NCBI GenBank assembly: GCA_043767805.1
Contig: JAYUGC010000023.1
Coordinates: 1 to 17,262, forward strand
Direction of reading: 5' to 3'
Length of the DNA: 17,262 bases
Origin: Pseudomonadota bacterium
Lineage (GTDB): Bacteria; Bdellovibrionota; FAC87; UBA2466
A model generated the notes under the pieces. It had not been told where the DNA came from. It saw nothing but the letters and a program-made list of their open reading frames with translations, and ran no database searches. This document shows positions 3,044-17,262 of this stretch, one piece after another (the stretch's first letter is position 1; each line of letters starts with the position of its first letter). The translations under genes were made by a program, and so were the position numbers.

Positions 3044-4096
3044 TTAAGCGGATCGCGCGAGGACGATTTTGATCCGTTTTCCGCCGAGCCGAAGACTCAG
3101 CGCGCCAACTCCCCAGCAGGCGATCGCCATCAAGCCGGGATAGAGCACCAAGCCGGCCCATGGAGAGAGCCGAGGGCTCACCCACTCTCCTAAGCGTTCG
3201 GCGAGGGAAACGTGAAAGAGATAAATCCAGAGCACGCCTTTTGAAAAACTCTGCACTAGACCGTATTTCGAAAAAGTGAGCCGCGCCGCGGCCCATTCAC
3301 ATCCCGCCATCAAGACGCAGAAAAATCCGGCGAGTCCCACGACGAATCCGAGAGACGGTTGAAAGATGGTGGCTCCCCAGAGATGCCCTTCATCGAGGTC
3401 GATGTGGAAGTAGCCGAGAGAGAGCGTCGCGACGACCGTCCCAAGTCCCACTAGACCCAGCACGGTGGCAAACCAGGGGGGATCGTCGAGCCGAAGCCGT
3501 AGGTCAGCGATGAAAAACCCGAAGACGACGATGAAGAACCACGGGAAAAACGGCCAATAACCGTCCGCCAGCCGGCTCCCCACTAAAAAAATGGAGAGAA
3601 GCGTGTCTTTCCCCGCAAATAAGGTCCGGAGCCACGGCGTGAGAAGCAGAGTTACCGCCCCAAGTCCGTAAACCAAATAGAGGTTGGTGTACTTGAGTAA
3701 CAAGGTGATGAGCAAAAAGGAGAAGCCAACGAATTGTAAAACGTCCCACTGAAACGTTTCGCCCGCACCCCAAGCGAGAAAATTCATGAGGAAACCGAGC
3801 AGCGTGATGGCGATGCTCACTTTCAAGATGGTGACGAAGGAGTACCCTTCGATCTTCAAGCCGGACCAGTACCGCACGAAATGAAGCCGAAGATTGGCGC
3901 CCGCCGTGGCGGGAAGGCTCATGGGGAAAATACCCAGCAGAGCAGCGCTAGCCAGATAGGGAACGATCGGGTTCGCCATGTTGATCTGTTCGTCACCGTT
4001 CGCAACCAAAGCGAAGGCCGAGTGGATGAAGACCATCATGAGGACGCAGAGAAATTTCGCGACGTCCAGGGCTGGCCATTCGTGGGAGGCTTTCAT
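3044..4096 (-). CDS. DUF1624 / heparan-alpha-glucosaminide N-acetyltransferase-like multi-pass membrane acyltransferase
   Basis: GAGG RBS. N-terminal ALDVAKFLCVLMMVFIH, WDVLQFVG, YWPFFPWFFIVVFG and LWIYLFH motifs. About 9-10 hydrophobic segments. Confidence 0.75.
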   Translation of the reverse strand: MKASHEWPALDVAKFLCVLMMVFIHSAFALVANGDEQINMANPIVPYLASAALLGIFPMSLPATAGANLRLHFVRYWSGLKIEGYSFVTILKVSIAITLLGFLMNFLAWGAGETFQWDVLQFVGFSFLLITLLLKYTNLYLVYGLGAVTLLLTPWLRTLFAGKDTLLSIFLVGSRLADGYWPFFPWFFIVVFGFFIADLRLRLDDPPWFATVLGLVGLGTVVATLSLGYFHIDLDEGHLWGATIFQPSLGFVVGLAGFFCVLMAGCEWAAARLTFSKYGLVQSFSKGVLWIYLFHVSLAERLGEWVSPRLSPWAGLVLYPGLMAIACWGVGALSLRLGGKRIKIVLARSA

Positions 4097-4308
4097 AGGG
4101 AAGACCTCTATTCTAACGGACGCAAGTCAAACGCGCTAATACCTGACACCCAAAGTCAGTCCGTGTTTCATCTTTAGCCCCTCTCAAAAGGCGAGCGATG
4201 TTTTTTGTCATTAGCGTAGCCCGGAGAGAGCCGGGCAAGACAAACCTTCAGGGGTCCAAGCTGACGCAAAGCATGGTAATTGAGGCCATTTGTGGGTATA
4301 CCTTGGCG

Positions 4309-5157
4309 ATGACCCGTTCCCTCATTGGTGGTTTGCTCGCTCTTGCCTTGGCCTTGCCTCTTCCGGCCCGAGCTTCAGTCACGGAAAAGCACGAGCTGAT
4401 CCCTTTTCGATCCGGGGAGTACTACGCGCTACCGGCCCTGGCTGCCGCCAATCTTTTTCTCATTTTCGACGTCTCTCCCTCGCATTCCCATTGGAGCGGA
4501 GGGGTGCTATTCGACGGCCCCATCCGGGACGCCCTCAGAGTGAAGACCCGGTCCGAGAGAGATGGGGTCGCCCTCGCGGGGGATCTCATGCTCTACACGC
4601 TGATTGCGTATCCAGGGGTGGTCGATGCCGGGCTCGACGCCGCTTGGTCGAAGCACGACATGAGAATAGGCACCCAGCTCTTTCTCATCAACATGCAGGC
4701 CTATCTGCTTTCGGGTGTCGCCTCCTTCGTGGTGAAGAAATTGACCGCGAGACAGCGGCCATTCGAGCAAGAGTGCAACGGCGATCCCAATTACGACATC
4801 GGCTGCCACCAGAAGGATAGCCGTCTCAGCTTTTATAGCGGGCACGCCGCCTTTTCCTTCACGGCGGCGGGACTCATTTGCGCCCATCACGAAAATCTCG
4901 AGCTTTGGGGGCAGATGACGCCTTGTTATGTTTCCATCGGAGCCGCGGCCGCGGTCGGCCTCACCCGCATTATCGCGGACCGCCACTACGCGACCGATGT
5001 GTTAGTCGGTAGCCTCGTCGGCTGGCTCTCGGGCTATACGATTTCACGCCTCTATCATTACAAAGAGGAAAGCGCCGCCGGTAAAGTGCAGATGTCCATT
5101 GTTCCCGTCGTGTACCCCGAAGGGCTCGGCGTGAACTTCGCCTTCGCCGGGTTTTAA
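4309..5157 (+). CDS. PAP2 family phosphatase (membrane-associated, signal peptide)
   Basis: All three PAP2 motifs are present: KKLTARQRP, SFYSGH, TRIIADRHYATDV. Preferred start is ATG 4309 (MTRSLIGGLLALALALPLPARA, signal-like) rather than 4198. Confidence 0.88.
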   Translation: MTRSLIGGLLALALALPLPARASVTEKHELIPFRSGEYYALPALAAANLFLIFDVSPSHSHWSGGVLFDGPIRDALRVKTRSERDGVALAGDLMLYTLIAYPGVVDAGLDAAWSKHDMRIGTQLFLINMQAYLLSGVASFVVKKLTARQRPFEQECNGDPNYDIGCHQKDSRLSFYSGHAAFSFTAAGLICAHHENLELWGQMTPCYVSIGAAAAVGLTRIIADRHYATDVLVGSLVGWLSGYTISRLYHYKEESAAGKVQMSIVPVVYPEGLGVNFAFAGF

Positions 5158-6176
5158 GTCTTAGGAAAGAACGCGAGACGGCGGTGGCGCTCCAGAAAAT
5201 ACGCCAGAGCCTGCCCTGCCCCGTCTCTAAGTAAAAACCGTCCAGCGAAAGTCCAAAGACGCGAGCGAGGGACCAGAGGAAAAAGACCTCGGCTCAGTCG
5301 ACGCAAGAGCGCGCGCCGGAGACCACTCACGCGTTCTTCGAGCTCGGTCAAAACGAAAGCGGGAACTTCGGCCCGGCTTAGAGTCAGCACGAACCAGGCC
5401 GCCGAGGAAAAACGAAAGCGTTCGGCCCGGGCGAGGAAACGAGACCAATCAATCGTCTCTTTTTGTATCAGTTGGCGAACGTCCAGAAGCCAAAGCGGCG
5501 ATTCGACGATGTGTTGAACTCCGGCGTGACGAATGAGGTAACTCAGATTGTCGGTCGCTTCCAGTACACGCACGGGGCAATCCAGGTCGGGAAAGACGAC
5601 GCTCTCGCTACGGCGCCAGTAGCCCTCGACTTCGGAAGCCGTCTCTCCGGCCAAAAGTCTCGCGTGCACTTCCACCACGGGATTTCCGTCGCGCGAGAGC
5701 TCGGTCCGAAAACGGCCGGGATAATCCCGGCCCACGGCCCGAAAGCCCTGGGCTATAAAGAGCGAGAGCGTCCGCGCGAAATCAGCGTCCCGCACCAGGA
5801 GATCGATGTCGGTCATGGGCCGTCTCAAACGTTCGGAGTAGTAGCGGCGGCCCAGCTCGGCACCTTTGAGGAGCAAAACGTCGACGCGTTCGCGCTTCAA
5901 TATCCCCAGAGCGAGCGAAAGCTCGTGATCGAGAAGCGCCTGCACCATGCGGCCTCGCCGAAGCTCTGATTCAAATTTTTCCTGGGTGCTCGCCGGCAGC
6001 TCGCCATTCCACGAACAGCTATCCAAGGTCAGAAGAAAGGGAAGCGTCGCGTGAAGGGAGCGGGAATAATCCAAGGCGGCGGCCCAACGGTTCGCGTCCG
6101 CGACAAAGCCGGGTTTCGCCGGAACTTTGCCCTCGATCAAAGCGAGAACGACCATTGAAAGCTGTCGCGCCGTCAA
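5154..6176 (-). CDS. Nucleotidyltransferase family protein (NTP_transf_5-like)
   Basis: LLLKGAEL...YY...RRPMTDIDLLV, VEVH and YLIRHA...WLLD motifs. Likely TTG start at 6176 overlapping the peptidase stop (TTGA), with GAGG upstream. Confidence 0.85.
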   Translation of the reverse strand: MTARQLSMVVLALIEGKVPAKPGFVADANRWAAALDYSRSLHATLPFLLTLDSCSWNGELPASTQEKFESELRRGRMVQALLDHELSLALGILKRERVDVLLLKGAELGRRYYSERLRRPMTDIDLLVRDADFARTLSLFIAQGFRAVGRDYPGRFRTELSRDGNPVVEVHARLLAGETASEVEGYWRRSESVVFPDLDCPVRVLEATDNLSYLIRHAGVQHIVESPLWLLDVRQLIQKETIDWSRFLARAERFRFSSAAWFVLTLSRAEVPAFVLTELEERVSGLRRALLRRLSRGLFPLVPRSRLWTFAGRFLLRDGAGQALAYFLERHRRLAFFPKT

Positions 6177-6616
6177 AGCCAGCGCCTCAACCACGATAGG
6201 GCTCGCGTGGCCCTTCGCCAAAAGGGAGCGCCGAATTTTCCTGAGCGAAGACTTAAAAAGGAAACGCGCGCAATGAGCCTATCGAGAGCGCCTCGCGAGA
6301 AAGGACGAGCGGCCCCGCCACCGGGCGATTTCAGAGAGACCACCTTGCCCCAGATTTGCTTGGTTTCAAACGACTCGGAGAGAAACCCGGAATCGCCTTT
6401 CACAATCCAATGAGGTCCCTCTGCAGCGAGCAGCCGATGCAAAATCCAATCGCCGTGCCCGTCGCGGCAAAGCACGAGATCTCCCGCCTCCGCTTTGGCG
6501 TCGGGGGAAGCAAGCCACTCCACGCCGACGAGACTTCCGGGGCGAAGAAAAGGGCACATACTCTCGCCTTCCACCCGAAGCCACGGAGCGGAATCAGGAC
6601 TTGAGCTTGGCGGCAT
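6173..6616 (-). CDS. S24/S26 family peptidase (soluble signal-peptidase-like), candidate leader peptidase
   Basis: LRVEGESMCPFLRPG (catalytic Ser), GDLVL, ILHRL, IVKGD and IWGKV motifs. No N-terminal TM anchor. Start probably ATG 6616; the 6670 extension overlaps the precursor core. Confidence 0.82.
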   Translation of the reverse strand: MPPSSSPDSAPWLRVEGESMCPFLRPGSLVGVEWLASPDAKAEAGDLVLCRDGHGDWILHRLLAAEGPHWIVKGDSGFLSESFETKQIWGKVVSLKSPGGGAARPFSRGALDRLIARVSFLSLRSGKFGAPFWRRATRALSWLRRWL

Positions 6617-6764
6617 TACAGGCGGGCACTCCACCGGTGGAAACCTTTCTGGAAGCGGTGGTCGTGCCATTGCACAAGGCCGCCACTGCGGTCAGAGGTT
6701 CCGTTTTTACGACGGGCTTTCGGTACGGCTTCTTTTCCGTATCGACTTTTTTCTCTTCAGACAT
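6594..6764 (-). CDS. 56-aa RiPP-like precursor peptide: MSEEKKVDTEKKPYRKPVVKTEPLTAVAALCNGTTTASRKVSTGGVPACNAAKLKS
   Basis: Read manually; absent from the ORF track. ATG at 6764 overlaps the kinase end, GGAGA lies upstream, TGA at 6594-6596. The leader has the YxxP RRE-binding motif (KPYRKPVV), the core has two Cys, and it lies between maturase genes. Confidence 0.85.
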   Translation of the reverse strand: MSEEKKVDTEKKPYRKPVVKTEPLTAVAALCNGTTTASRKVSTGGVPACNAAKLKS

Positions 6765-7704
6765 GGTGACTTCTTTCTCCCTGAATTAAGGGCCAAAATC
6801 CGGAATCCATGCGGAAATGAAGGCGGGAGATTCCTGCCGGCGCCGAGGCAAAATGGATCGCCAAATCGAAACGCGTTTCGATGAAACTGTCGAAACCGGC
6901 CATCATGGTGCTCGCCAGTAAAGATCGCACCCCTTCGGCAACGCTCAAGGACTCCACTTCGTGGGCGGCGGACTGAGAGAGCGAATAAAGTCCCGCGAGA
7001 GGCACTTTCGCGGGAACCGGCGCTTCCTTCGTCCACGCGGAGCCGAGAGGTGCAGCGTGAAGCCAGTATCCGCTTTCCGTTTTCTGAATGATGGCGGCGT
7101 CGTCACCTAAAATCACGGCCAGGGGATCGGCTTCGGAAATGAGGCGTACCGTCGTCGATTTTCCCGCCCCGCTTTGCCCGAAGAAAAGATAACCTCGGCC
7201 CGCCCGTTGCACGCTAGCGGCGTGAACGAGAAAAGCGGAGGTTTCCAGTAAAAGATCGGGCAGCGTCCAGCGGAGCAGATTCAAGATCGAGTCCGAAAGC
7301 TCTTCGGGATTCACGCCACCGACCACGGAAAGCAATCGCTCACCGGGGATGGCGGGAAACCGGCGAGCCGCAAAGTCTCTTTGTACCACCCGATCGCCCC
7401 GGCAATCGAACTCCGGATCCGCGTCTTCCCAAAGATCCGCCGCTCCGCCCTCTTTTGGCTCGACGAAAAGAACCGCTTGGGCCGGCAAATCGGAAAGGTA
7501 CTGCCGGAAGTACCGCTTAATTTCCGTCGCTAACGCGGAGGAGCTGGTAACGAAAGCCAGAGTAAGTCCGGCGAGCTCGATTCCGATCCACTCTCCCTGC
7601 CCACCCACCTCGGGAAGCGAGCGAGCTGCGAGCCAATCAAAAAGAAAAACCCGGCGCGGGCTCGTCGGCACTTGGGAAGAGAGATGAGAAGTGGAGTGAA
7701 GCAA
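6757..7704 (-). CDS. HPr-kinase-related P-loop kinase (ScmC-like / peptide kinase)
   Basis: LVHAASV, Walker A GQSGAGKSTT, ILGDD acidic pair and PLAGLYSL. Start uncertain (TTG 7704 or GTG 7671). Confidence 0.8.
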   Translation of the reverse strand: MLHSTSHLSSQVPTSPRRVFLFDWLAARSLPEVGGQGEWIGIELAGLTLAFVTSSSALATEIKRYFRQYLSDLPAQAVLFVEPKEGGAADLWEDADPEFDCRGDRVVQRDFAARRFPAIPGERLLSVVGGVNPEELSDSILNLLRWTLPDLLLETSAFLVHAASVQRAGRGYLFFGQSGAGKSTTVRLISEADPLAVILGDDAAIIQKTESGYWLHAAPLGSAWTKEAPVPAKVPLAGLYSLSQSAAHEVESLSVAEGVRSLLASTMMAGFDSFIETRFDLAIHFASAPAGISRLHFRMDSGFWPLIQGERSHHV

Positions 7705-7839
7705 AAAATTCTAAAAAGTTTTGAGCCCGAGTATAGCGCGCGCCCGAGAGCCTGCCTATCGCCTTGCTTGCCATCCCGCGTTGGAACGGGCCCGGCAACT
7801 CGCCTTGCCCTGGCGGATCGCCTTTGTTTTAATGTCCCC
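7705..7839. promoter_or_regulatory. Divergent promoter region of the RiPP-like cassette
   Basis: Minus strand: -10-like hexamers TATACT (7730-7735) and TAGAAT (7708-7713). Plus strand: TTGCCC (7805-7810), 17 bp, TTTAAT (7828-7833, preceded by TGn), ending 6 nt before the PqqD ATG. Confidence 0.45.
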
Positions 7840-8100
7840 ATGACACCAGTGCGAGAGCCCAATCTCCCTTGGAGAGAGGTAGGCGGCCGAGCCATCATTC
7901 TTTCTCCGAAGCACGGCAGCATCCACGAGCTAAACGACGTCGGCACTTTGCTTTGGACGCATGCCGACGGCGAGACCTCGATCGAAAGCCTCGCGGAGAC
8001 ACTCGCCGCTTCCTTCGATATCGAGCCCGCGACCGCCGAGGCGGACGCCCGCGTATTTTTCGCCGAGCTGGAAACTCTCGGCCTCGTCCGCTTGCATTAG
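7840..8100 (+). CDS. Stand-alone PqqD family RiPP recognition element (RRE), 86 aa
   Basis: WREVGGRAIIL...IHELNDVGTLLWTHADGETSIESLAETLAASFDIEPATAEADARVFFAELETLGLV matches the PqqD pattern LN-x-x-G-x-x-(I/L)W...DG...F...L...GL. Start ATG 7840 rather than 7672. Confidence 0.92.
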   Translation: MTPVREPNLPWREVGGRAIILSPKHGSIHELNDVGTLLWTHADGETSIESLAETLAASFDIEPATAEADARVFFAELETLGLVRLH

Positions 8101-8107
8101 GAGCTCC

Positions 8108-9151
8108 ATGTCCATCTTGTCCGACTTCCGCGAAGTCACCCAGGAAAAGCTCATCCCGCTGCAGGTGACCCTCGAGCTCACTTACCGGTGCAACGAGCGT
8201 TGCGGGCATTGTTATCTCGCGACTTATGACGACCGCGCGGACGGACGCCCCACGTTGACGCTTTCCGAATGGCAAAGAATTTTAGACGAGCTGGCTTTGG
8301 CCAAGACCCTTTATCTCATCCTCATCGGCGGCGAGGCCATGATGCACCCTCAGTTCTGGGGCATCGCCGAGTACGGGGCCAAGCGAAACTTCGTTTTGAG
8401 TCTCATCACCAACGGCCTCTTAGTCGACGAGCGCGCGGCCGATCGCTTTAGCGATCTCAATTTTTATCAAGTGACGGTCAGCTTCTATTCCCTCGATCCC
8501 GCGATCCACGATCGCATGACCCGCCGAGTGGGCTCGCACGCGGCGACTCAGGCCGCCATCAAGCGGCTTCAGAAAAAGGGCGTCGGCGTCGGTTTGAACT
8601 GTTTACTCACCCGGGAAAATATCGAAGGCTGCTTCGAGCTCGAAGCCTGGGCTAAAGCGAATGGTCTCGTCATTCAGTTCGATCCCATGGTCACGCCAAA
8701 GTCAGACGCCTCGCTCGCCTCGACGGTAACGCGCGCCTCGCGCGCACAGCTGACAACGTATTTCACCACTTTGAAGCAGCTCGGCCGAGGGCACGGCCCG
8801 CAGCCCAAGGCGGAAGCAGTGGATCCCGTGTGCAATGCCGGCCGCGGCAAATGCGCCGTGAACCCTTACGGAGATTTACTCACCTGCCTCGAAGTCAGAG
8901 AGGCCATTGGGAACTTGCGCGAGAAATCTTTCGCCGATTTATGGCACTCCCCTAAAGCGCAAGAGTTGCGCGGCTACCGCGTCCGCGATTTGAAGTTCGA
9001 CTCGTCTTGCGGCGACGGCGCCTTCTGCGATCACTGTCCCGGCATGGCGGGCGCCGAGGTGGGAGACCGTATGGCGCCGATTCCCTTCCTCATGGAACTT
9101 GCCCAAATCAAGCGCCAGGTTTTCGAGTCCGACTCGCCGGGCCAGCCATAG
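8108..9151 (+). CDS. Radical SAM/SPASM-domain peptide maturase, 347 aa
   Basis: AGGAG RBS and ATG 8108. Radical SAM motifs: LELTYRCNERCGHCY (CxxxCxxC), GGEA, ITNG, HDRMTR..GS. SPASM-like tail: CNAG...NPYGDLLTC...IGNL...LW...C-x5-C-x2-CPG. Confidence 0.93.
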   Translation: MSILSDFREVTQEKLIPLQVTLELTYRCNERCGHCYLATYDDRADGRPTLTLSEWQRILDELALAKTLYLILIGGEAMMHPQFWGIAEYGAKRNFVLSLITNGLLVDERAADRFSDLNFYQVTVSFYSLDPAIHDRMTRRVGSHAATQAAIKRLQKKGVGVGLNCLLTRENIEGCFELEAWAKANGLVIQFDPMVTPKSDASLASTVTRASRAQLTTYFTTLKQLGRGHGPQPKAEAVDPVCNAGRGKCAVNPYGDLLTCLEVREAIGNLREKSFADLWHSPKAQELRGYRVRDLKFDSSCGDGAFCDHCPGMAGAEVGDRMAPIPFLMELAQIKRQVFESDSPGQP

Positions 9152-9316
9152 CTCCCGCCGAGTGTTCGAAAGTTAGCTGACCCCCCGCCCAATCTTTTTC
9201 CACTCCCTAGCCTAACCCCTTGGATCAGCGGCGGTTTCAAATTGTCGGGGGATCTTCATCCTTAAGCGCTACGCATGGAGTTAAACTAGGATCATGAAGT
9301 AATTCACGCTTTTTTA

Positions 9317-9368
9317 GATTTCAGGACCATCGCCTGCCTTCCGAGAGGATTAGGTATGGTCCCGAATC
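9317..9368 (+). other. Predicted long stem-loop upstream of the giant gene
   Basis: GGACCAT (9324-9330) pairs with ATGGTCC (9356-9362). Outer extension GATTTC/GAATC; inner stems GCCTG/TAGGT and CCT/AGG. Confidence 0.45.
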
Positions 9369-9404
9369 ATTTGTGGGACGTCTGTTGCAGAGGAACGTTT
9401 AGCG

Positions 9405-12400
9405 ATGAATTTCGTTCGGCAAACATTTTCGCGCGCGCCCCTGTTTTTGATCGCGGCGATCCTGTTCTCCGCGCAGACGGCTTTTGCCGCGTGCACGACC
9501 GGCACGAACGCGTGTTGCCTTGCGGGCGGTGGTACGGGCGATAGCTCCGCCACTCGTCGCACCTGGCAGCCTACCTCCGGCACCGTGACCTGGATCGATA
9601 CCGCCAACTGGGCCACGGCGAACATTCCCGACACGAGTGTCGAAGAAGCTTACATTCAATCGGACTGGCAAATTCCCGCGTGGCCGAACACCAGCTATTC
9701 GCTCGCTTGCGTTCAGGTGCCTTCGGGCGCCTTTACCGCGACTCCGGCGGCGGTCTCGGTCACCATGGCCAATACGAGCGCGGCCGTCACCATGTCTGCC
9801 CCGACGGCGACCGTGACCATGGCCGCCCCAACGGCAACCATCACGGGCAACACGCCTTCACTCAATGTGACGTTTCAGGCCGGATCCGCGATTACTTTTA
9901 CCATCCCGAGCGCCACCATCACCATGACGAGCGCAAACCCGGGCGTCGTGACCTGGACGGCACACGGAATGGTATCGGCCGATACCCCCGTTCAGTTCAC
10001 CACCACAGGGGCGCTCCCGACAGCGATCGCCCAAAACACCACGTATTACGTCAGAAATATCGCTGTTAATACTTTCCGATTGGCTTCAACACCGGCCGGC
10101 GCCGCCATGAGTACCCTTGCGGGAACTCAGTCTGGCATCCATACCGGCCGTCAAGCTCTGCAAATCAATTGGACCGGCCATGGTTTGGCGGCGAGCGATC
10201 CCGTGGTATTTACCAACACCGGTGGCGCTCTTCCTACAGGCCTCACCGCGGGGACAACCTATTACGTGGCCTCCCTTCCCGCGTTGACCGCGAATACCTT
10301 TTCAGTTTCCGCGACGGCGGGCGGTGTTGCTATCGTTTCCACTTCGACGGGCTCAGGCACTCAAAAGGGTTTTAAGAGGGAAGTGGTCACTTGGACCTCT
10401 CATGGGCTCGCGGCAAACGACCCGGTCGTCTTTACGAACTCGGGCGGTGCGCTCCCCACCGGAATTACGGCCGGCACCACCTATTACGTGGCGGCCACTC
10501 CCGCCCCGACAGTCAATACGTTTGCCATCTCGGCGACGGCGGGGGGCACGGCCATCTTTGCGACATCGGACGGGACAGGAACTCATACCGGGTCGAAAAC
10601 GCTCATCTGGACATGGACGGCGCACGGGCTTCTCGCCGGCGCGCCCGTAAGCTTTACGAACTCGGGTGGCGCTCTGCCTGCTCCGCTCGTCTCCGGAACC
10701 ACTTATTACGTGGCCGCCTCCCCGGCGCCTGCAGCCAATACTTTCTCGGTGGCAACCACGGTGAACGGCACGGCCATCATGGGAACTTCGGCCGGCACCG
10801 GAACGCATACCGGACGAAAGCCCTCTTTGGTCACGTGGACCGCTCACGGTCTGTCTGCGGGATTCACGGTTAGCTTCACGAACTCAGGCGGCGCTTTACC
10901 CACGCCGTTCGTGGCCAGCACGGTTTATTACGTTGCCGCCGTCCCGGCTCCCACCGCGAATACTTTTTATGTGACTGCCACCGCGGGCGGTGAAGCCATC
11001 ATCAACACCGTGGCCGGCTCCGGAACTCATACTGGCAATAAGACTACGACGATTACTTGGACCGCTCATGGCCTTGCCGCTGGAACTCCGGTGAAATTCA
11101 CGAACTCGGGCGGCGCTCTGCCTTCTCCCTTGGTCGCGGGGACCATATATTACATCGCGAGCACTCCTGCGCCGGCAGCCAACACCTTCTCTGTGGCGGC
11201 GACTGCCGGTGGCGACGCCATCATCAACACCTCGGCGGGCTCCGGAACTCATACGGGGTACAAACCGACCACCGTGACCTGGACGGCGCATGGACTCACG
11301 GCCGGAGCCCCCGTGAGATTTGCGGGAACAATGCCGACGGGTCTTACTGCCGCCACCATTTATTACGTTGCCGCCCTCCCCGCCCCCGCGGCGAACACCT
11401 TTTCGATAGCAGCGACGAACGGGGGCGTCGCTCTTTTTAGCACTGGCACCGGTGCCACGATTACCAACGACGCTTTCTTCTTGAGCGTTGCCTCCGAGTA
11501 TTTCGAGAATCTCAACGCGGGCTCGCTCACCACGAACGCGAACTTTTTCATTCGCATGAACGGCGCCTACGCGCAGAAGTTCAACAACGTAGACCCCATC
11601 AACAACCTCATCATCTCGAACGGCACCACCGTCACCATGCCGAGCAATTTTACGATTAGCTCGAGTATGGTCATCGATTCGGGCGCGGGCACCACTCTGA
11701 TCGATGGCGGACTGACCCTAAGCTATACCGGCACCGCTTTAACCATTCCCGCGAGTGCCACGGTCGAAGTGGGCAGTGGCGCTACCTTCACGGCTATGGG
11801 CGGAATCATCGTCAACGGCGTTTTGAAAATCGACGCCGGCGCCCGTGTCCTCATCGGCAACGGCAAAACCCTGCAAGTCAATGCGGGCGGCCTTCTCCAA
11901 ATGATCGGAACTTCGGGTAACGTCGCCACCCTCGATGCCGCCCAAGGCGGATCGACTTACGCCCTGAACGTGGCCGGTTCGATCAACGCCAACTATTTCT
12001 CCATCAGCCGCACTACGGCCAGTGGTTTGAATATCACCACGGGTGGCTCCGACTCGATTCAAACCCTTTCGAACGGTGATTTTCACTACCCGGCCACTGG
12101 CGGCGCGGCGATTACGCTCAATACCGCCAAGAATTTACCAAGCCCCGATCCGAGCGGCCTAGGCTTCTTCGACGAGTTTGCCTACGGCAACACGAAGAAC
12201 ATAGACGCCACGAGCTATACGGGAACCGCTGTCACCATCAATAGCTACTCGGGCCTAGGCGGAGTGGCGAACGAAGTCGATCCAGGAAGTAAGATCGCCT
12301 GGGGAACGACCGCGGCCTTAGCCCTTCAGGTCACTAATCGTACCGCCTCGGGCGCTCCCGCCTCTACTATCGCAAAGGGTGCGGCAGCTACGCTCTTCGC

Positions 12401-15400
12401 CACCTACGGATTCGCCCTGAATGGAACTGGCACCAGTACCGACCTGACTTCCCTCACGCTCACTTTGGATGGCGTCAACGTCGCCTCCGACGTGAATTAC
12501 ATACAGGTCTTCAACGACACTTCGGCGAACTGCGCCTATAACTCCGGCGTCGATACGCAAATCGGTAGCAACTTGACGATGACGGGCAGCCCGCCCACCG
12601 CGACCCTCACGATTCCGGCGAGCACCCTCTCTCTCTCAAATACGACGCAAAAGTGTTTGCACGTATTGCTGTCGACCAACTCGAACGCGCGCACCGGCGA
12701 TACGCTCCAGATGACTATTTCTGGAACCGCGGACGTCAGCAATAGCCAAGCGTATAGTTTTTCGAACTCGGGGGGCCCTCCGATCTCGGGCACCGTCTCC
12801 ACCATCACGGGTACCGCGGTCAAGAAGTGGAACGGCGGCAACGGTGCCATTGGCGCCTCACAAAACTGGAACGCCAACGGAGGCGACTGGACGCCCACCA
12901 CCGCGCCGGTCTCGACGGACGATTGTCAGATCGGTCCCGCACACTCGTACCCGGCAGTGAATGGCAACTACACTTGTACAAACGTGACGCTCCCGACGAA
13001 TGGGCGCATGAACTGGGCGAGTACCGCCAATACCCTCACCGTTCTGGGTGCCTTGTCCATCGGCTCGACCTACACTTTCTTGAACGCGACGACTGGCAAC
13101 ATCACCATGGGTGCGACGACCGCCTGGCAGGCCATCGACGCCGCCACCGCGATCCCCGGAAACCTAATCATCAACAATACCTACAACACCGACGGGCTGG
13201 TGGCGATTAACACCGACCTTACCGTGAACGGAAACCTGACCCTCACGCGCGGTATCCTCACGGTAACTACCGGACATACGCTTACCGTACTCGGCACCAT
13301 TACCGTGAACGGCGGTACCCTCGACATCGACCCGGGCGGCACACTCAACCTCGGCGACGGCCGTACGATGACCATTAATACCGGCGGTACTCTCAACATA
13401 GTGGGTGACGCGACTCAATCAGCGAGGTTTACCTGCAACGGCACGGCCACCGGGTGCGCGATTTCCGTCGCCGGCACCGGCACCATCGCCGCTCGCTACT
13501 ATTCCATGAGCCGCATGGCGGTTGCCGGCCTTACGATTGCCTCGACCGCGAGCATCGATGCCACGAACCATCTGCAAGACGGCTCGTTTACCTATCCCAT
13601 CGGTGCGAGCCCGATCCTGCTGACGTTGAATCGTCAGGTCCCGACCAATGCCTTGGCCAACATGACGTTCGACACGGCTAGCTCGGCGGCCACCAGCCCT
13701 AAGTCCATTCTCACCAGTACGTCGGCGGGGACGCTTACCATTTCCGCTTACAGCGGCGATCTCACGAACTGCTGCACGACGGCGCCGACCTACCTGGTTT
13801 CCTGGACAGCCCCCACGACGACTTTGAAGCTGACTCTCGAGGCTTCCGCTCCCGGCGCAGTCAACCAGGGTGCCACGGGCGTGACTCTTGCCCGCTTCGG
13901 CCTGCAACAGACTCAAGCCGGCGCCTACAGCGATACCGACGTCACCTCGATGAAGGTGACGATGCAGGGCAGTCAGAACTCGGGCGATATTTCCGCGGTT
14001 CGGCTTTACTACGACTCCGCTTGCAGCGGAAGCGGCGGCGTTCAAGTGGGCAGTACGCTAACCTTCTCGGGTAGCCCGCCGACTGCCAACTTCACGAGTC
14101 TGACCTCGGCGACCGTCCAGTATAGTTTGACCTCTCCGCCGAAGCGCTGTTTCTACGTGCAGGCGGACGTCGCCTCCGCGGCGACCGTGGCCAATACCAT
14201 TGGCGTCAGCATTCAATCGAACGCGGATGTCGTTAACAGCATCGGTTATTCGTTCAACGGCTCTTATGCACCGCCCCTCGCGGCCGGAACGTCAGTCATC
14301 AGCGGTAATTCCATCACCTGGACGGGCGCGACGAACACGGACTGGAATACGACCTCTAACTGGAACTTGGCCCGCGTCCCGTTGACGACTGACAACTGCA
14401 TTATCAACTCGGTCACCAACAACCCGGTCATCAGCGCGGCGACCGCCAACTGCAAGTCCCTCACCATCGGTAACGGCACGCTCACGATCAATACGGGCCA
14501 AACCGTGGAGGTGTACGGTTCGTTCACCAACACCGGCACTCTGACGTTGACCGGCACGGCCTCGGTCACCATTCGGGACAACGGCTCAACAACGACCAAC
14601 CAGACGCTGCAAAGTTCTTCCCCTCTGACTAAAGTGGTCTTCAACAAGACGGCCGGCGGTTACGTCTACATCGGTAACCAAACCCTCACCATTGACCCAC
14701 TTACCATCCCGGCGAGTCAGAACTTCACATTCGACGTGCGTAACGGGAATACACTCACGCTTCCCTCGGGCGCTACCGTTACCTCCGCCACGTTCCAGGC
14801 GGACGACGCGGCGCTGGTAAAAATAGGTAACGCACAGACTTTCCTCGTAAACGGCGGTACCCTTTACTCGAACGGCGTGAACGACGGCTATCCCCAGCTC
14901 ACCACGAACAAATCCAAGTTCACGGTAAACGGCTCCGGAACCTGGTCCCTTACCGCCACGAGCGGCACCATCAACATGACCGGATTCCTTTTGGATTATC
15001 TGGACACGAACGGTTTTCAAATCAACGGAACGACCGGTGTCACGAACTTCAACGGCGGCCAGTTCACTAACTTGTCGAACACCTACGCGAGCGTGAAGGC
15101 TCTCCAAGTCAATACGAGCGGCAGCTTCCCCGCCTCGGGAGCGTTCGACTACATCGGCTTCAACTGGGGCGCGAACAATACGCCTCCCGGACCCGCGGCC
15201 GCCTACCTACTTGCGAGCTCCACGGGGTGCTCGAGCCGAACGCTCAATCTCACAAACTGGTTCGGCGACTTCTTCTACGCCGTGGACATGCCGGTCCCGT
15301 CGACTAAGATTTCGAACACGAGCTGTAACATTACGATGACGGCGGCTGCTTCCGCCGTCACTCTGACCCAGTTCAAGGTCACGCCGTATAACGCGAAGGT

Positions 15401-17262
15401 AGTGCTCGACTGGACTACGGGTCTCGAAGTTGCGCATCAAGGCTTCAATGTATATCGCAGCACGGATCCAGAAGCGGGTTTCGTGCAGATTAATCCTTTC
15501 CTGATTCGCAATCCAGTCGCGACGGGATCGATTCACGGCCGATATCAATTCTATGATGGCAGCGTAGCCAACGGAAAAACCTACTACTACAAGCTCGAGG
15601 ATATCGCCTCGAACGGCCATCGTACGCTTCACGGTCCGCTCGAGGCGACTCCGGATGCGTCGCTAGGCGCAGCCCCGGCCTCGGCCTCCGACGCGATCGT
15701 CGCGGGCGATACGTTACCAGCCCCGGTACCGACGGCGCCGGATCCGGACACTCTCGCGGGCGCCGGTCAAGTCATCGCCCCCGGGATCACGATTTTAGCG
15801 AAGACCAATCACTCCCTGCGGTTAAAAATCGACGTGCCCGCTTCCATCAGAGGCGCGTCGGATTTGAGCCCGTACGAAGCCGTCACCATTCCTGGTTATT
15901 CCTCCTCCACCGAAGCCAATCGTCCGGAGCTTCCGGAACGCACCGTTTTGGTGGAAGTCTCCGAGGCGCTCACCGCCACTTTCCGTGAAGTGAGCCGAAG
16001 CGCCTCCATGATTACCCGCATCGATGTAGTGCCGGCGAAAGCCTGGACCGTGGTTGGCGGGAACCTAGTCCCCTCCCCCCCGGTGGTGGACGCCGCGTTC
16101 TACGCCCTGGATCAAAGACTCCCGTCGGCGGCGATTGAACTGGGCGCCATCGTTCAGAATCAGGGATTGAGTTATCTGCCCGTGAAAATCCGGCCTCTCG
16201 CCTACAACCCGATGCAGAGAGACATCAACGCGCTTTCTCAAATCGTCGTCGACATCTCGCTCTCCGGCGTACCGGACTGGAACACGGGAGCTCCCGTGGT
16301 GGAGAGCGGCGCCTGGGGTTATGAGGGCGCTCTTAGAGTTCACATCAAGAAGGCCGGTCTCTATCAGATTCGTTACGAGGACCTAGTTTCGCTGGGACTC
16401 GAAGGCCCGTTCGACGAAGCGAACATGGCCAAGCTCCGGCTCTTCAACGTTTCCGGAGAGCTTCCGCTCGAAGTCACCACCACTACCGGCTTCTTCTCGA
16501 CGGGCGATTTCATTCGGTTCTTCGCGCCCTATGTCGAGAGCCCCAGCTCCGACCGCAATACTTTGGTTCTGATCGCCGATTCCGTCGCAGGGCTCCGTAT
16601 GAGGTCCGTTTCGGGCGCGGTCACCGGATACGCCAGCACGCAAGCGAGCTTCGAGCGACGCATTCAGGTCAAAACCCCGACGTACGGCCTGTTCCAAGAG
16701 GCTTATGGAGAAGGTCTCGATCACATTTTCTGGGGCGGCATCTATTCTCCGCCGCAAAATCCGGGCGAAGACCGTATCGATGCGTCGATGAGGCTTCCGA
16801 ACCTCGCCAGCACGGGTACGGCGCGCCTGAAGATTTACGCCAAGGGCAGCCCGGGTGGACATCTTCAGAATCCGAACCATCACGTGCGCATTTTCGTGAA
16901 TGGTTCCGCCGCGCCTCAGGGCGACGTCACCTTCCAGAGCAACGAAGCTCAGGTTCTGATCTTCAACGTCCCGGCCTCGGGACTCGTGGGCGGCTTGAAT
17001 CACGTTGAAATCGTGGCCGTGGGCGACCTGACCCCGGGAGACTACGACTTCATCAATATCGAGAAAATCGTGGTCGATTACCCTCACGAGTGGATCGCGG
17101 AAGCTGGGTACGCCGACCTCTTGAATTATCAGACGGGTTCCACGCTCACAGTAAAGGGTTTCGGCAGCGAGCCCATCGCCGTCTATGACGTGACCAATAC
17201 TGCCCACACGGCGGTTCTGACGGGCGTGAATGCCGTCGATGCCGGCGCGGACGGGCACGAAG
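9405..17262 (+). CDS. Giant secreted multidomain protein with C25 (gingipain/PorU-like) peptidase architecture, at least 2619 aa, 3' truncated
   Basis: Missing from the ORF track, consistent with no in-frame stop in the window. GAGG RBS, ATG 9405, Sec signal (…SAQTAFA-A). Thr/Gly/Ala/Asn-rich beta modules, then an FN3-like domain AVTLTQF...LDWTTGLE...GFNVYRS...YYYKLED..NG..T.HGP (~15354-15653). C25-propeptide-like RPELPERTVLVEV...FYA...PLAYNP (~15780-16265). PorU-like LRVHIKKAGLYQIRYEDL...LRLF...GDFIRFFA (from ~16326). The catalytic His/Cys region is not in the window. Confidence 0.85.
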   Translation, partial: MNFVRQTFSRAPLFLIAAILFSAQTAFAACTTGTNACCLAGGGTGDSSATRRTWQPTSGTVTWIDTANWATANIPDTSVEEAYIQSDWQIPAWPNTSYSLACVQVPSGAFTATPAAVSVTMANTSAAVTMSAPTATVTMAAPTATITGNTPSLNVTFQAGSAITFTIPSATITMTSANPGVVTWTAHGMVSADTPVQFTTTGALPTAIAQNTTYYVRNIAVNTFRLASTPAGAAMSTLAGTQSGIHTGRQALQINWTGHGLAASDPVVFTNTGGALPTGLTAGTTYYVASLPALTANTFSVSATAGGVAIVSTSTGSGTQKGFKREVVTWTSHGLAANDPVVFTNSGGALPTGITAGTTYYVAATPAPTVNTFAISATAGGTAIFATSDGTGTHTGSKTLIWTWTAHGLLAGAPVSFTNSGGALPAPLVSGTTYYVAASPAPAANTFSVATTVNGTAIMGTSAGTGTHTGRKPSLVTWTAHGLSAGFTVSFTNSGGALPTPFVASTVYYVAAVPAPTANTFYVTATAGGEAIINTVAGSGTHTGNKTTTITWTAHGLAAGTPVKFTNSGGALPSPLVAGTIYYIASTPAPAANTFSVAATAGGDAIINTSAGSGTHTGYKPTTVTWTAHGLTAGAPVRFAGTMPTGLTAATIYYVAALPAPAANTFSIAATNGGVALFSTGTGATITNDAFFLSVASEYFENLNAGSLTTNANFFIRMNGAYAQKFNNVDPINNLIISNGTTVTMPSNFTISSSMVIDSGAGTTLIDGGLTLSYTGTALTIPASATVEVGSGATFTAMGGIIVNGVLKIDAGARVLIGNGKTLQVNAGGLLQMIGTSGNVATLDAAQGGSTYALNVAGSINANYFSISRTTASGLNITTGGSDSIQTLSNGDFHYPATGGAAITLNTAKNLPSPDPSGLGFFDEFAYGNTKNIDATSYTGTAVTINSYSGLGGVANEVDPGSKIAWGTTAALALQVTNRTASGAPASTIAKGAAATLFATYGFALNGTGTSTDLTSLTLTLDGVNVASDVNYIQVFNDTSANCAYNSGVDTQIGSNLTMTGSPPTATLTIPASTLSLSNTTQKCLHVLLSTNSNARTGDTLQMTISGTADVSNSQAYSFSNSGGPPISGTVSTITGTAVKKWNGGNGAIGASQNWNANGGDWTPTTAPVSTDDCQIGPAHSYPAVNGNYTCTNVTLPTNGRMNWASTANTLTVLGALSIGSTYTFLNATTGNITMGATTAWQAIDAATAIPGNLIINNTYNTDGLVAINTDLTVNGNLTLTRGILTVTTGHTLTVLGTITVNGGTLDIDPGGTLNLGDGRTMTINTGGTLNIVGDATQSARFTCNGTATGCAISVAGTGTIAARYYSMSRMAVAGLTIASTASIDATNHLQDGSFTYPIGASPILLTLNRQVPTNALANMTFDTASSAATSPKSILTSTSAGTLTISAYSGDLTNCCTTAPTYLVSWTAPTTTLKLTLEASAPGAVNQGATGVTLARFGLQQTQAGAYSDTDVTSMKVTMQGSQNSGDISAVRLYYDSACSGSGGVQVGSTLTFSGSPPTANFTSLTSATVQYSLTSPPKRCFYVQADVASAATVANTIGVSIQSNADVVNSIGYSFNGSYAPPLAAGTSVISGNSITWTGATNTDWNTTSNWNLARVPLTTDNCIINSVTNNPVISAATANCKSLTIGNGTLTINTGQTVEVYGSFTNTGTLTLTGTASVTIRDNGSTTTNQTLQSSSPLTKVVFNKTAGGYVYIGNQTLTIDPLTIPASQNFTFDVRNGNTLTLPSGATVTSATFQADDAALVKIGNAQTFLVNGGTLYSNGVNDGYPQLTTNKSKFTVNGSGTWSLTATSGTINMTGFLLDYLDTNGFQINGTTGVTNFNGGQFTNLSNTYASVKALQVNTSGSFPASGAFDYIGFNWGANNTPPGPAAAYLLASSTGCSSRTLNLTNWFGDFFYAVDMPVPSTKISNTSCNITMTAAASAVTLTQFKVTPYNAKVVLDWTTGLEVAHQGFNVYRSTDPEAGFVQINPFLIRNPVATGSIHGRYQFYDGSVANGKTYYYKLEDIASNGHRTLHGPLEATPDASLGAAPASASDAIVAGDTLPAPVPTAPDPDTLAGAGQVIAPGITILAKTNHSLRLKIDVPASIRGASDLSPYEAVTIPGYSSSTEANRPELPERTVLVEVSEALTATFREVSRSASMITRIDVVPAKAWTVVGGNLVPSPPVVDAAFYALDQRLPSAAIELGAIVQNQGLSYLPVKIRPLAYNPMQRDINALSQIVVDISLSGVPDWNTGAPVVESGAWGYEGALRVHIKKAGLYQIRYEDLVSLGLEGPFDEANMAKLRLFNVSGELPLEVTTTTGFFSTGDFIRFFAPYVESPSSDRNTLVLIADSVAGLRMRSVSGAVTGYASTQASFERRIQVKTPTYGLFQEAYGEGLDHIFWGGIYSPPQNPGEDRIDASMRLPNLASTGTARLKIYAKGSPGGHLQNPNHHVRIFVNGSAAPQGDVTFQSNEAQVLIFNVPASGLVGGLNHVEIVAVGDLTPGDYDFINIEKIVVDYPHEWIAEAGYADLLNYQTGSTLTVKGFGSEPIAVYDVTNTAHTAVLTGVNAVDAGADGHE
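9744..9932 (+). repeat. Seven short (~9-aa, 27-nt) beta-strand-like repeats
   Basis: PAAVSVTMA / NTSAAVTMS / APTATVTMA / APTATITGN / TPSLNVTFQ / AGSAITFT / IPSATITMT, directly preceding the seven 74-aa repeats. Confidence 0.75.
9945..11470 (+). repeat. Seven tandem ~74-aa (222-nt) coding repeats, FCCH-like / phage-virion-type small beta domains
   Basis: W-T-x-H-G codons start at 9954, 10170, 10392, 10614, 10836, 11058 and 11280 (spacing 216, then 222 five times). Consensus VTWTAHGLxAGxPVxFTNSGGALPxxLxAGTxYYVAxxPAPxANTFSVxATAGGxAIxxTxxGSGTHTG, diverged at synonymous sites. Confidence 0.93.

Follow-up and report, generated by a model that had tools for sequence, protein, structure and literature searches.

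The 17,262-nt stretch of DNA analysed here (the window; GenBank:JAYUGC010000023.1, assembly GCA_043767805.1, a member of the Bdellovibrionota) takes up contig C23 of its assembly completely and contains six small genes, tightly packed between positions 5154 and 9151, followed by a giant gene (9405–17262). The six genes have the make-up of a maturation cassette for a ribosomally made peptide that is modified post-translationally (RiPP), and we consider it probable that this cassette and the giant PorU-like surface lipoprotein encoded next to it constitute one functional unit. That the cassette makes a modified peptide is very likely, and a functional tie between the cassette and the giant is only a little less so; for the chemistry of the product and the role of the giant we infer the scheme given below. 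The locus is real, conserved and uncharacterised, being a variant of the kinase/transferase-tailored RiPPs, and its genomic tie to a PorU-like giant surface protein is unprecedented and, from the genome comparisons, well supported.

Family models and the list of open reading frames (ORFs) recovered in place every gene named in the preliminary description of the window. Four genes lie on the minus strand, reading from 7704 down to 5154 in the order kinase, peptide, peptidase and nucleotidyltransferase; diverging from them on the plus strand are the genes for a PqqD-type protein and a radical SAM/SPASM enzyme and, after a gap of 253 nt, the giant gene. The features are as follows.

5154..6221, minus strand: NTP_transf_5 nucleotidyltransferase (PF14907, E 4.6e-35)
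6173..6670, minus strand: S24/S26-like peptidase (PF00717, 27 bits against a cut-off of 23.3)
6594..6764, minus strand: 56-aa precursor peptide, with no match in the family models searched (Pfam, NCBIfam)
6757..7704, minus strand: P-loop kinase, predicted to belong to the HprK/PEPCK superfamily (sub-cut-off ScmC and HprK_rel_B matches, structure model, P-loop residues)
7705..7839, no strand: divergent intergenic region between the kinase operon and the PqqD, radical SAM and giant genes (by position)
7840..8100, plus strand: PqqD-type RiPP recognition element, 86 aa (PF05402, E 1.7e-15)
8108..9151, plus strand: radical SAM/SPASM enzyme, 347 aa (Radical_SAM, E 5.9e-19; SPASM, E 9.4e-10; both above cut-off)
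9405..17262, plus strand: giant surface protein, 2619 aa to the contig end (one open frame that runs off the contig)
9405..9494, plus strand: putative signal peptide of the giant, ending ...AFAAC, lipobox-like (read from the sequence)
9936..11474, plus strand: seven tandem repeats of the giant, about 74 aa each (no family match)
15285..15734, plus strand: domain of the giant, aa 1961–2110, in common with Acidobacteriota-type giants (tblastn matches in more than 20 loci)
15879..16262, plus strand: Propeptide_C25 of the giant, aa 2159–2286 (PF08126, E 2.7e-6)
16320..17262, plus strand: first 313 residues of the PorU-like module of the giant (61% identity to residues 1–313 of the module of the same-genus orthologue)

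The synteny of all seven genes was kept in full in four of four nearer relatives, namely a genome of the same genus, two of the family and one of another family. For a broader view, 401 genomes of the phylum were searched with profiles for the kinase and for the full PorU-like module, and the kinase profile matched 54 of them. A census was made of about 20 kb around the best kinase match in 40 of the other 49 genomes, leaving out the genome of the window, the four relatives just mentioned and the nine weakest matches. The radical SAM gene was present in all 40 stretches, the transferase in 36, the PqqD gene in 28, the peptidase in 26 and the C25 module in 24, and 10 of the 16 stretches that lacked the C25 module ended early at a contig end. 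The precursor peptide was found in 36 stretches as well. Clustering of the proteins encoded in 45 loci of the phylum placed the giant in 32 of them.

The co-occurrence of the two parts was also seen at the level of whole genomes. The PorU-like module was found in 40 of the 401 genomes, and the kinase was present in 37 of these as against 17 of the 361 genomes without the module; the three genomes having only the giant included two fragmentary assemblies, and 344 genomes had neither. This pattern spans at least 10 families of the phylum, and in several genomes the kinase and the giant were located on separate contigs; G234, which has both, consists of a single contig. Since five C25 genes were counted in the 4.5 Mb of the present genome, a rough estimate of the chance of meeting one in a random 20-kb stretch is about 2–3%.

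A cross-phylum set of 51 loci (52 minus one duplicate), bearing the titles Acidobacteriota, Chloroflexota and a Dongiaceae metagenome-assembled genome (MAG), contained the radical SAM gene in 36 and the C25 module in 23 cases. In 14 of the 51, the peptidase domain and the C25 module were encoded in one uninterrupted frame of 2100–2850 codons. Inspection of four such fusions revealed the peptidase domain to be followed by basic residues and a signal-peptide-like hydrophobic segment, an arrangement in which the peptidase would stay at the cytoplasmic face and the remainder of the protein would be sent outside. Since this pairing is seen again in other bacterial phyla, it is probable that peptide and protease act jointly. 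The synteny, the 14 fusions and the co-occurrence in 37 of 40 genomes thus agree with the earlier proposal that the cassette belongs with the giant rather than to a free-standing antibiotic cluster.

Some loci differed in arrangement. Locus L112 (G301:C19) is rearranged, with the kinase, peptidase and transferase genes on one side of the C25 module and the PqqD and radical SAM genes on the other, and a motif search there did not find the family peptide. A paralogous cassette on contig C134 of the present genome (L016:5362-9705) has on one strand the genes for a kinase, a PqqD-type protein, a radical SAM enzyme, a 59-aa peptide ending in Ser, a 184-aa weakly S24-like ORF and a transferase; it is flanked on one side by genes for an SLBB export protein and four GT4 glycosyltransferases, and on the other by a Fic-domain gene. 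Genes for an ABC-2 type ATPase (about 210 aa) and a permease (about 270 aa) were found in 23 and 20 of the 45 loci of the phylum, respectively (the pair occurring in L015, L111 and L115–L146, e.g. L111:5788-7271 and L122:10073-11465); in L111 the pair occupies the position that the giant has in the window.

The 56-aa peptide (MSEEKKVDTEKKPYRKPVVKTEPLTAVAALCNGTTTASRKVSTGGVPACNAAKLKS) has a Lys-rich leader containing Y14-x-x-P17 and a core containing C31-N-G, R39-K40 and C49, and it terminates in S56. Each of the four syntenic loci, and two paralogous loci besides, had a homologous peptide, and of the 36 found in the census 35 ended in Ser and one in Thr. When no requirement was placed on the last residue, the motif retrieved 42 distinct peptides, every one of which ended in Ser; their alignment (A2) had P17, C31, G33, K40, C49 and S56 invariant, with N32, G37 and R39 nearly so. 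In the cross-phylum loci, Ser was the last residue of 36 of the 45 tails from motif-bearing ORFs near the cassette, compared with 9.7% of all ORF tails; the nine other tails were mostly noise-like, two of them possibly representing other precursor types. A profile of the 42 peptides matched 74 clusters at E ≤1e-3 (36 at E ≤1e-10) among 1.84 billion representative proteins. Upon exclusion of two long repetitive proteins, 72 short representatives were left, of which 48 ended in Ser, 21 in Thr and three in another residue. On these counts of Ser and Thr at the ends of family peptides, a C-terminal hydroxyl residue is the hallmark of the family. The present genome has only two family peptides.

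It was also noticed that one sub-family of the peptides (L138:11627-11830; library proteins P0071, P0081–P0085 and others) has a poly-Gly insert before C-N-G or C-D-G and a Thr end. Short YxxP ORFs that lack a Ser/Thr end lie beside distant kinase homologues in L026:8211-8384 and L060:9455-9649 (titled Actinomycetota and Myxococcales), and these could represent another type of precursor.

The catalytic residues of all four enzymes were invariant among the aligned homologues. In the kinase, the P-loop residues G176, S178, G181, K182 and T184 together with D201 were found in 70 of 70 sequences and D202 in 69 of 70. Its model, folded from the alignment with a predicted local distance difference test score of 93.4, supports a fold of the HprK/PEPCK superfamily and nothing finer; PF27840 is the precomputed family for 44 of 45 kinase homologues. 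The transferase residues D138 and D140 were invariant in 46 of 46 homologues, and S37, H78, R79 and D93 of the peptidase in 58 of 58. The peptidase is a candidate leader peptidase of the S26B (archaeal/SipW-like) signal-peptidase type (sigpep_I_arch, E 3.4e-4, below cut-off), and because it has no hydrophobic segment (maximum Kyte-Doolittle score 0.76) it probably acts in the cytoplasm. The best solved relative of the PqqD-type protein was the lasso-peptide PqqD chaperone 9x90_B (E 2.5e-4). For the radical SAM enzyme, C28, C32 and C35 of the CX3CX2C motif and also C242 and C260 were present in 68 of 68 homologues, and the SPASM cysteines C249, C301, C307 and C310 in 41 to 63 of 68. The earlier view of the locus as a peptide-maturation system thus gained a conserved peptide and four enzymes with invariant catalytic residues, and what it said of the product chemistry stays at the level of analogy.

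In the model searches no named family suited the locus. Matches were obtained to PF14907, PF00717, PqqD, SPASM and Propeptide_C25; the SynChlorMet models stayed below cut-off. Every NCBIfam model listed for the kinase, the PqqD-type protein and the radical SAM enzyme scored below its cut-off; for the radical SAM enzyme none of the 25 matches listed, out of 57, attained it, the best listed being MftC (111.5 bits against 265).

The giant was described before as a C25-type protein, and in the window this holds for its Propeptide_C25 and the start of the PorU-like module; the catalytic C25 domain would lie beyond the contig end and was seen only in orthologues. The missing end of the window giant was not located on any other contig of the genome. 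Full-length orthologues of 3172, 3318 and 2553 aa each had Propeptide_C25 and the C25 domain (PF01364, E 1e-63 to 6e-75). Their last 720 or so residues matched the PorU model NF033707 at E 5e-50 to 8e-65, below cut-off, and the range for orthologous giants, aligned to positions 8–738 of the model, was E 5e-50 to 1e-68 (168–232 bits, cut-off 420); for the module of the same-genus orthologue the match to NF033707 had an E of 5.4e-50 (below cut-off), and the best solved relative was PorU (6za2, E 6.2e-9). The catalytic His and Cys of C25 were invariant in 38 of 38 modules.

Outside the protease module, the signal peptide ended in [GA]-A-C in six of six giants inspected, and near the N-terminus the repeats of about 74 aa, which have no Pfam match, followed the pattern W-T-x-H-G-L ... 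F-T-N-S-G-G-A-L-P ... Y-Y-V. All five complete giants (L070, L071, L072 and those on contigs C110 and C197) terminated in a stretch rich in Gly and containing one Cys, followed by a hydrophobic helix and then a basic tail, which resembles a C-terminal sorting signal, presumably of a kind similar to MYXO-CTERM. This tail had no match in NCBIfam, and it is absent from the Acidobacteriota-type giants. Searches of this genome for Por_Secre_tail, SprA and GldM, run without a positive control, gave no match.

From these features we propose the following scheme. The YxxP leader of the peptide would be bound by the PqqD-type protein, and the core would be cross-linked by the radical SAM/SPASM enzyme via the two invariant cysteines; thioethers would be the most likely kind of cross-link, an assignment on which we are evenly divided. 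The invariant C-terminal Ser would be phosphorylated by the HprK/PEPCK-fold kinase, and we lean towards this residue being the site of that enzyme. A further group, probably a sugar, would be added to the phosphate by the PF14907 transferase. In the cytoplasm the leader would be cut off by the signal-peptidase-like enzyme, which is soluble and of the Ser/His/Asp kind, the probable site following the small-residue A-x-A directly ahead of C-N-G, and the mature peptide of about 28 residues would act together with the C25 (PorU-like) protease module of the giant, as its substrate, ligand or anchor.

A more specific form of the scheme, which we regard as speculative and rather unlikely, would make the matured peptide a covalent partner of the PorU-like module. 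The C25 domain would then serve, without type IX secretion, as a transpeptidase of the sortase type, by which the free N-terminus of the cross-linked peptide is connected with the giant or the giant's cleaved C-terminus. The PF14907 transferase would in turn attach the C-terminal phospho-Ser to a cell-surface glycan or a sugar, and the ribosomal peptide would be a purpose-built linker holding a giant adhesin-protease at the cell surface. A complex predicted between the peptide (A2) and the PorU-like module from the same-genus orthologue (alignment A3) scored 0.01, which we counted neither way.

Among described systems the nearest is the linear polyphosphorylated peptide (LPP) pathway found in Bacillota (LppA/B/K/S/N/D; Popov et al., Nat Commun 2026, PMC13381572). 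Its parts are a leader peptidase of the SipW-like type, a discrete recognition protein, a kinase resembling HprK, an uncharacterised NTP transferase and a leader with YxxP, and for this pathway phosphorylation and leader removal have been demonstrated experimentally. Both systems have a discrete PqqD-type protein, a type known to bind the YxxP motif (PMC13381572), together with a YxxP leader, an HprK-like kinase and an NTP transferase, the likeness of the last two being drawn from the fold and P-loop of the kinase and the PF14907 match of the transferase. Both also have a Ser/His/Asp leader peptidase, S37, H78 and D93 here matching S29, H68 and D93 of LppS, which mutation proved to be needed (PMC13381572). 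Polysaccharide genes lie beside some LPP loci and, here, beside the second cassette on contig C134.

The differences from the LPP pathway, as given in PMC13381572, are as follows: 1) a radical SAM/SPASM gene is present in the window and in 40 of 40 census loci, whereas the LPP product is linear, and because this enzyme is always present the product here is probably not linear, 2) of the LPP motif YxxPxVLxHQxIxFETxxS only YxxPx[VI] is in common, being followed here by K-T-E-P-L-T-A-V-A-A, 3) the conserved hydroxyl residue is C-terminal here and Ser3 in LPP, 4) LPP has an MsbA-like pump, and none is encoded in this window, 5) the present system is linked to a giant PorU-like protein, and 6) it is found outside Bacillota, to which LPPs are described as restricted.

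Tailoring of the C-terminus has a precedent in paeninodin and pseudomycoidin, for which PsmK/PadeK phosphorylate the side chain of the C-terminal Ser and PsmN adds a hexose to the phosphate; D158/D159 of PsmK and D134/D136 of PsmN are needed, by mutation (PMC6993621). The DD motif of the kinase and the DxD motif of the transferase, compared as motifs, are conserved here. Unlike lasso peptides, the system has no cyclase (Asn-synthetase-like) or B2 peptidase (transglutaminase-like) among the 12 window ORFs scanned or the conserved clusters of the 45 loci; as stated in the preliminary description, an ABC exporter was likewise not found among those 12 ORFs. With sacti- and ranthipeptides it has in common the radical SAM CX3CX2C motif (68 of 68) and SPASM, as well as two core cysteines invariant in 42 of 42 peptides.

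The likeness to SynChlorMet (TIGR04248–TIGR04251) noted before proved to be one of gene logic only. HprK-like, PqqD and radical SAM/SPASM genes are combined there, as in GeoRSP and HPr-rel-A, and the kinase and the PqqD-type protein had their best or near-best NCBIfam matches in these families. All matches were far below cut-off, with ScmC at 43.4 bits against 125, ScmD at 34 against 100, ScmE at 70.2 against 400 and ScmF at 59.9 against 400 (GeoRSP radical SAM, 65.2 against 400; HprK_rel_B, 35 against 200), and LPP is the better comparison. The C-terminal module of the giants resembles PorU, the C25-family sortase of type IX secretion (6za2, NF033707), in its alignment, in having it as best solved relative and in the His/Cys dyad; it differs in scoring well under the NF033707 cut-off and in being the tail of a lipoprotein-like giant of 2500–3300 aa. 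A literature search for the name SynChlorMet found no paper, nor was one found on a system of radical SAM enzyme, HprK-like kinase and C25 protein, the supplementary lists of LPP domain co-occurrence in PMC13381572 lying outside that search.

Several observations weigh against cassette and giant forming one unit, or against single steps of the scheme: 1) kin are not independent, so that the 2x2 table of 401 genomes (Fisher value) overstates the significance, 2) the tie is not obligatory in cis, and 17 of the 54 kinase-bearing genomes showed no giant module, 3) the second cassette, on contig C134, adjoins a gene for an SLBB export protein and four GT4 glycosyltransferase genes, without a giant, 4) two complete giants with full PorU-like modules have no adjacent cassette (C110:12004-19584, 2526 aa; C197:10659-18266, 2535 aa), making three giants versus two cassettes in this genome, 5) the window has no exporter, 6) Foldseek placed the kinase model nearer to PEPCK than to HPr kinase, with ATP-PEPCK on top (E 5.7e-9, template modelling score 0.42–0.53) and HPr kinase 1knx at rank 40 (E 9e-5), 7) LppK, which among characterised kinases of the kit is the nearest, phosphorylates core residue Ser3 and not the C-terminus, and rejects Thr (PMC13381572), and 8) LppN was inactive in a heterologous host (PMC13381572).

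Points 2) and 3) would be expected if the product were an ordinary free-standing RiPP, such as an antibiotic of the sacti- or ranthipeptide-like kind tailored with phosphate, and the giant were often adjacent without having any function in common with it; the ABC-2 ATPase and permease genes of related loci, as in exported RiPPs, point the same way. We nevertheless consider this explanation unlikely, since the kinase is so much more frequent in giant-bearing genomes than in others, even where the two are on separate contigs, the pairing is met again in loci with the titles Acidobacteriota, Chloroflexota and Dongiaceae, and 14 loci have a fusion of the peptidase to the giant.

[quoted passage not shown] MftC, the best listed match of the radical SAM enzyme, is the mycofactocin maturase, the logic of PqqD, radical SAM/SPASM and peptidase is the same, and the C-terminal residue is the most conserved feature of the peptide. 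However, the whole core is conserved and not the tail alone (C31, G33, K40 and C49 invariant; N32, G37 and R39 nearly so), and no oxidoreductase partner is conserved among the loci. It is very improbable that the cassette enzymes act on the giant itself, with the small ORF as decoy or regulator, as the fusion of the peptidase domain ahead of the signal-peptide-like segment in 14 loci and the conserved Cys that directly follow the signal peptide and also occur in the C-terminal tail (six of six giants inspected) might suggest, since a small peptide with the PqqD-binding YxxP motif (PMC13381572) is kept in 36 of 40 census loci and the inspected giants have no Ser/Thr end.

With regard to gene boundaries, the four minus-strand genes were previously described as overlapping. 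This is certain only for the kinase stop codon and the peptide ATG, which overlap by 8 nt (ATGTCTGA); the peptide/peptidase and peptidase/transferase overlaps hinge on the choice of start codon. The likely start of the peptidase is ATG 6616 or GTG 6574, and in relatives the peptidase starts directly after the stop codon of the peptide; that of the transferase is uncertain, being TTG 6221 or ATG 6155. A GGAG-like ribosome site is located about 10 nt upstream of the peptide gene. A single promoter-like site (7758–7730, minus strand) lies in the intergenic region 7705–7839, a count not above that of shuffled sequence, and the scan of positions 5000–9500 for promoters and terminators likewise gave counts at the shuffle level. 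Rfam had no match in the whole window, and a repeat search of the two intergenic regions found nothing notable. The sequencing runs listed were DNA runs from one study, with no RNA among them.

The genes upstream of the cassette in the window encode PAP2, Acyl_transf_3, delta-60 repeat and PSD2 proteins. Those for PAP2 and the Acyl_transf_3 membrane acyltransferase (3044–5157) abut the cassette and were considered as parts of the system; because the upstream genes have no counterparts in the six related loci, they were not counted as such.

If the favoured reading is correct, namely that cassette and giant form one unit, RiPP-type machinery would serve a giant surface protease and not produce a diffusible antibiotic. 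Modified peptides would thereby gain a new job, and PorU-like enzymes a setting outside type IX secretion that is new; the cooperation of peptide and protease would then probably be of a kind not yet described. The system is widespread, being present in 54 of 401 sampled genomes of this phylum, whose bacteria are mostly predatory, and in MAGs with the labels Acidobacteriota and Chloroflexota. It is compact enough for reconstitution and would allow tests of what PF14907 transferases do and of what the phosphorylated LPP and paeninodin peptides are for, the roles of these peptides being left open by PMC13381572.

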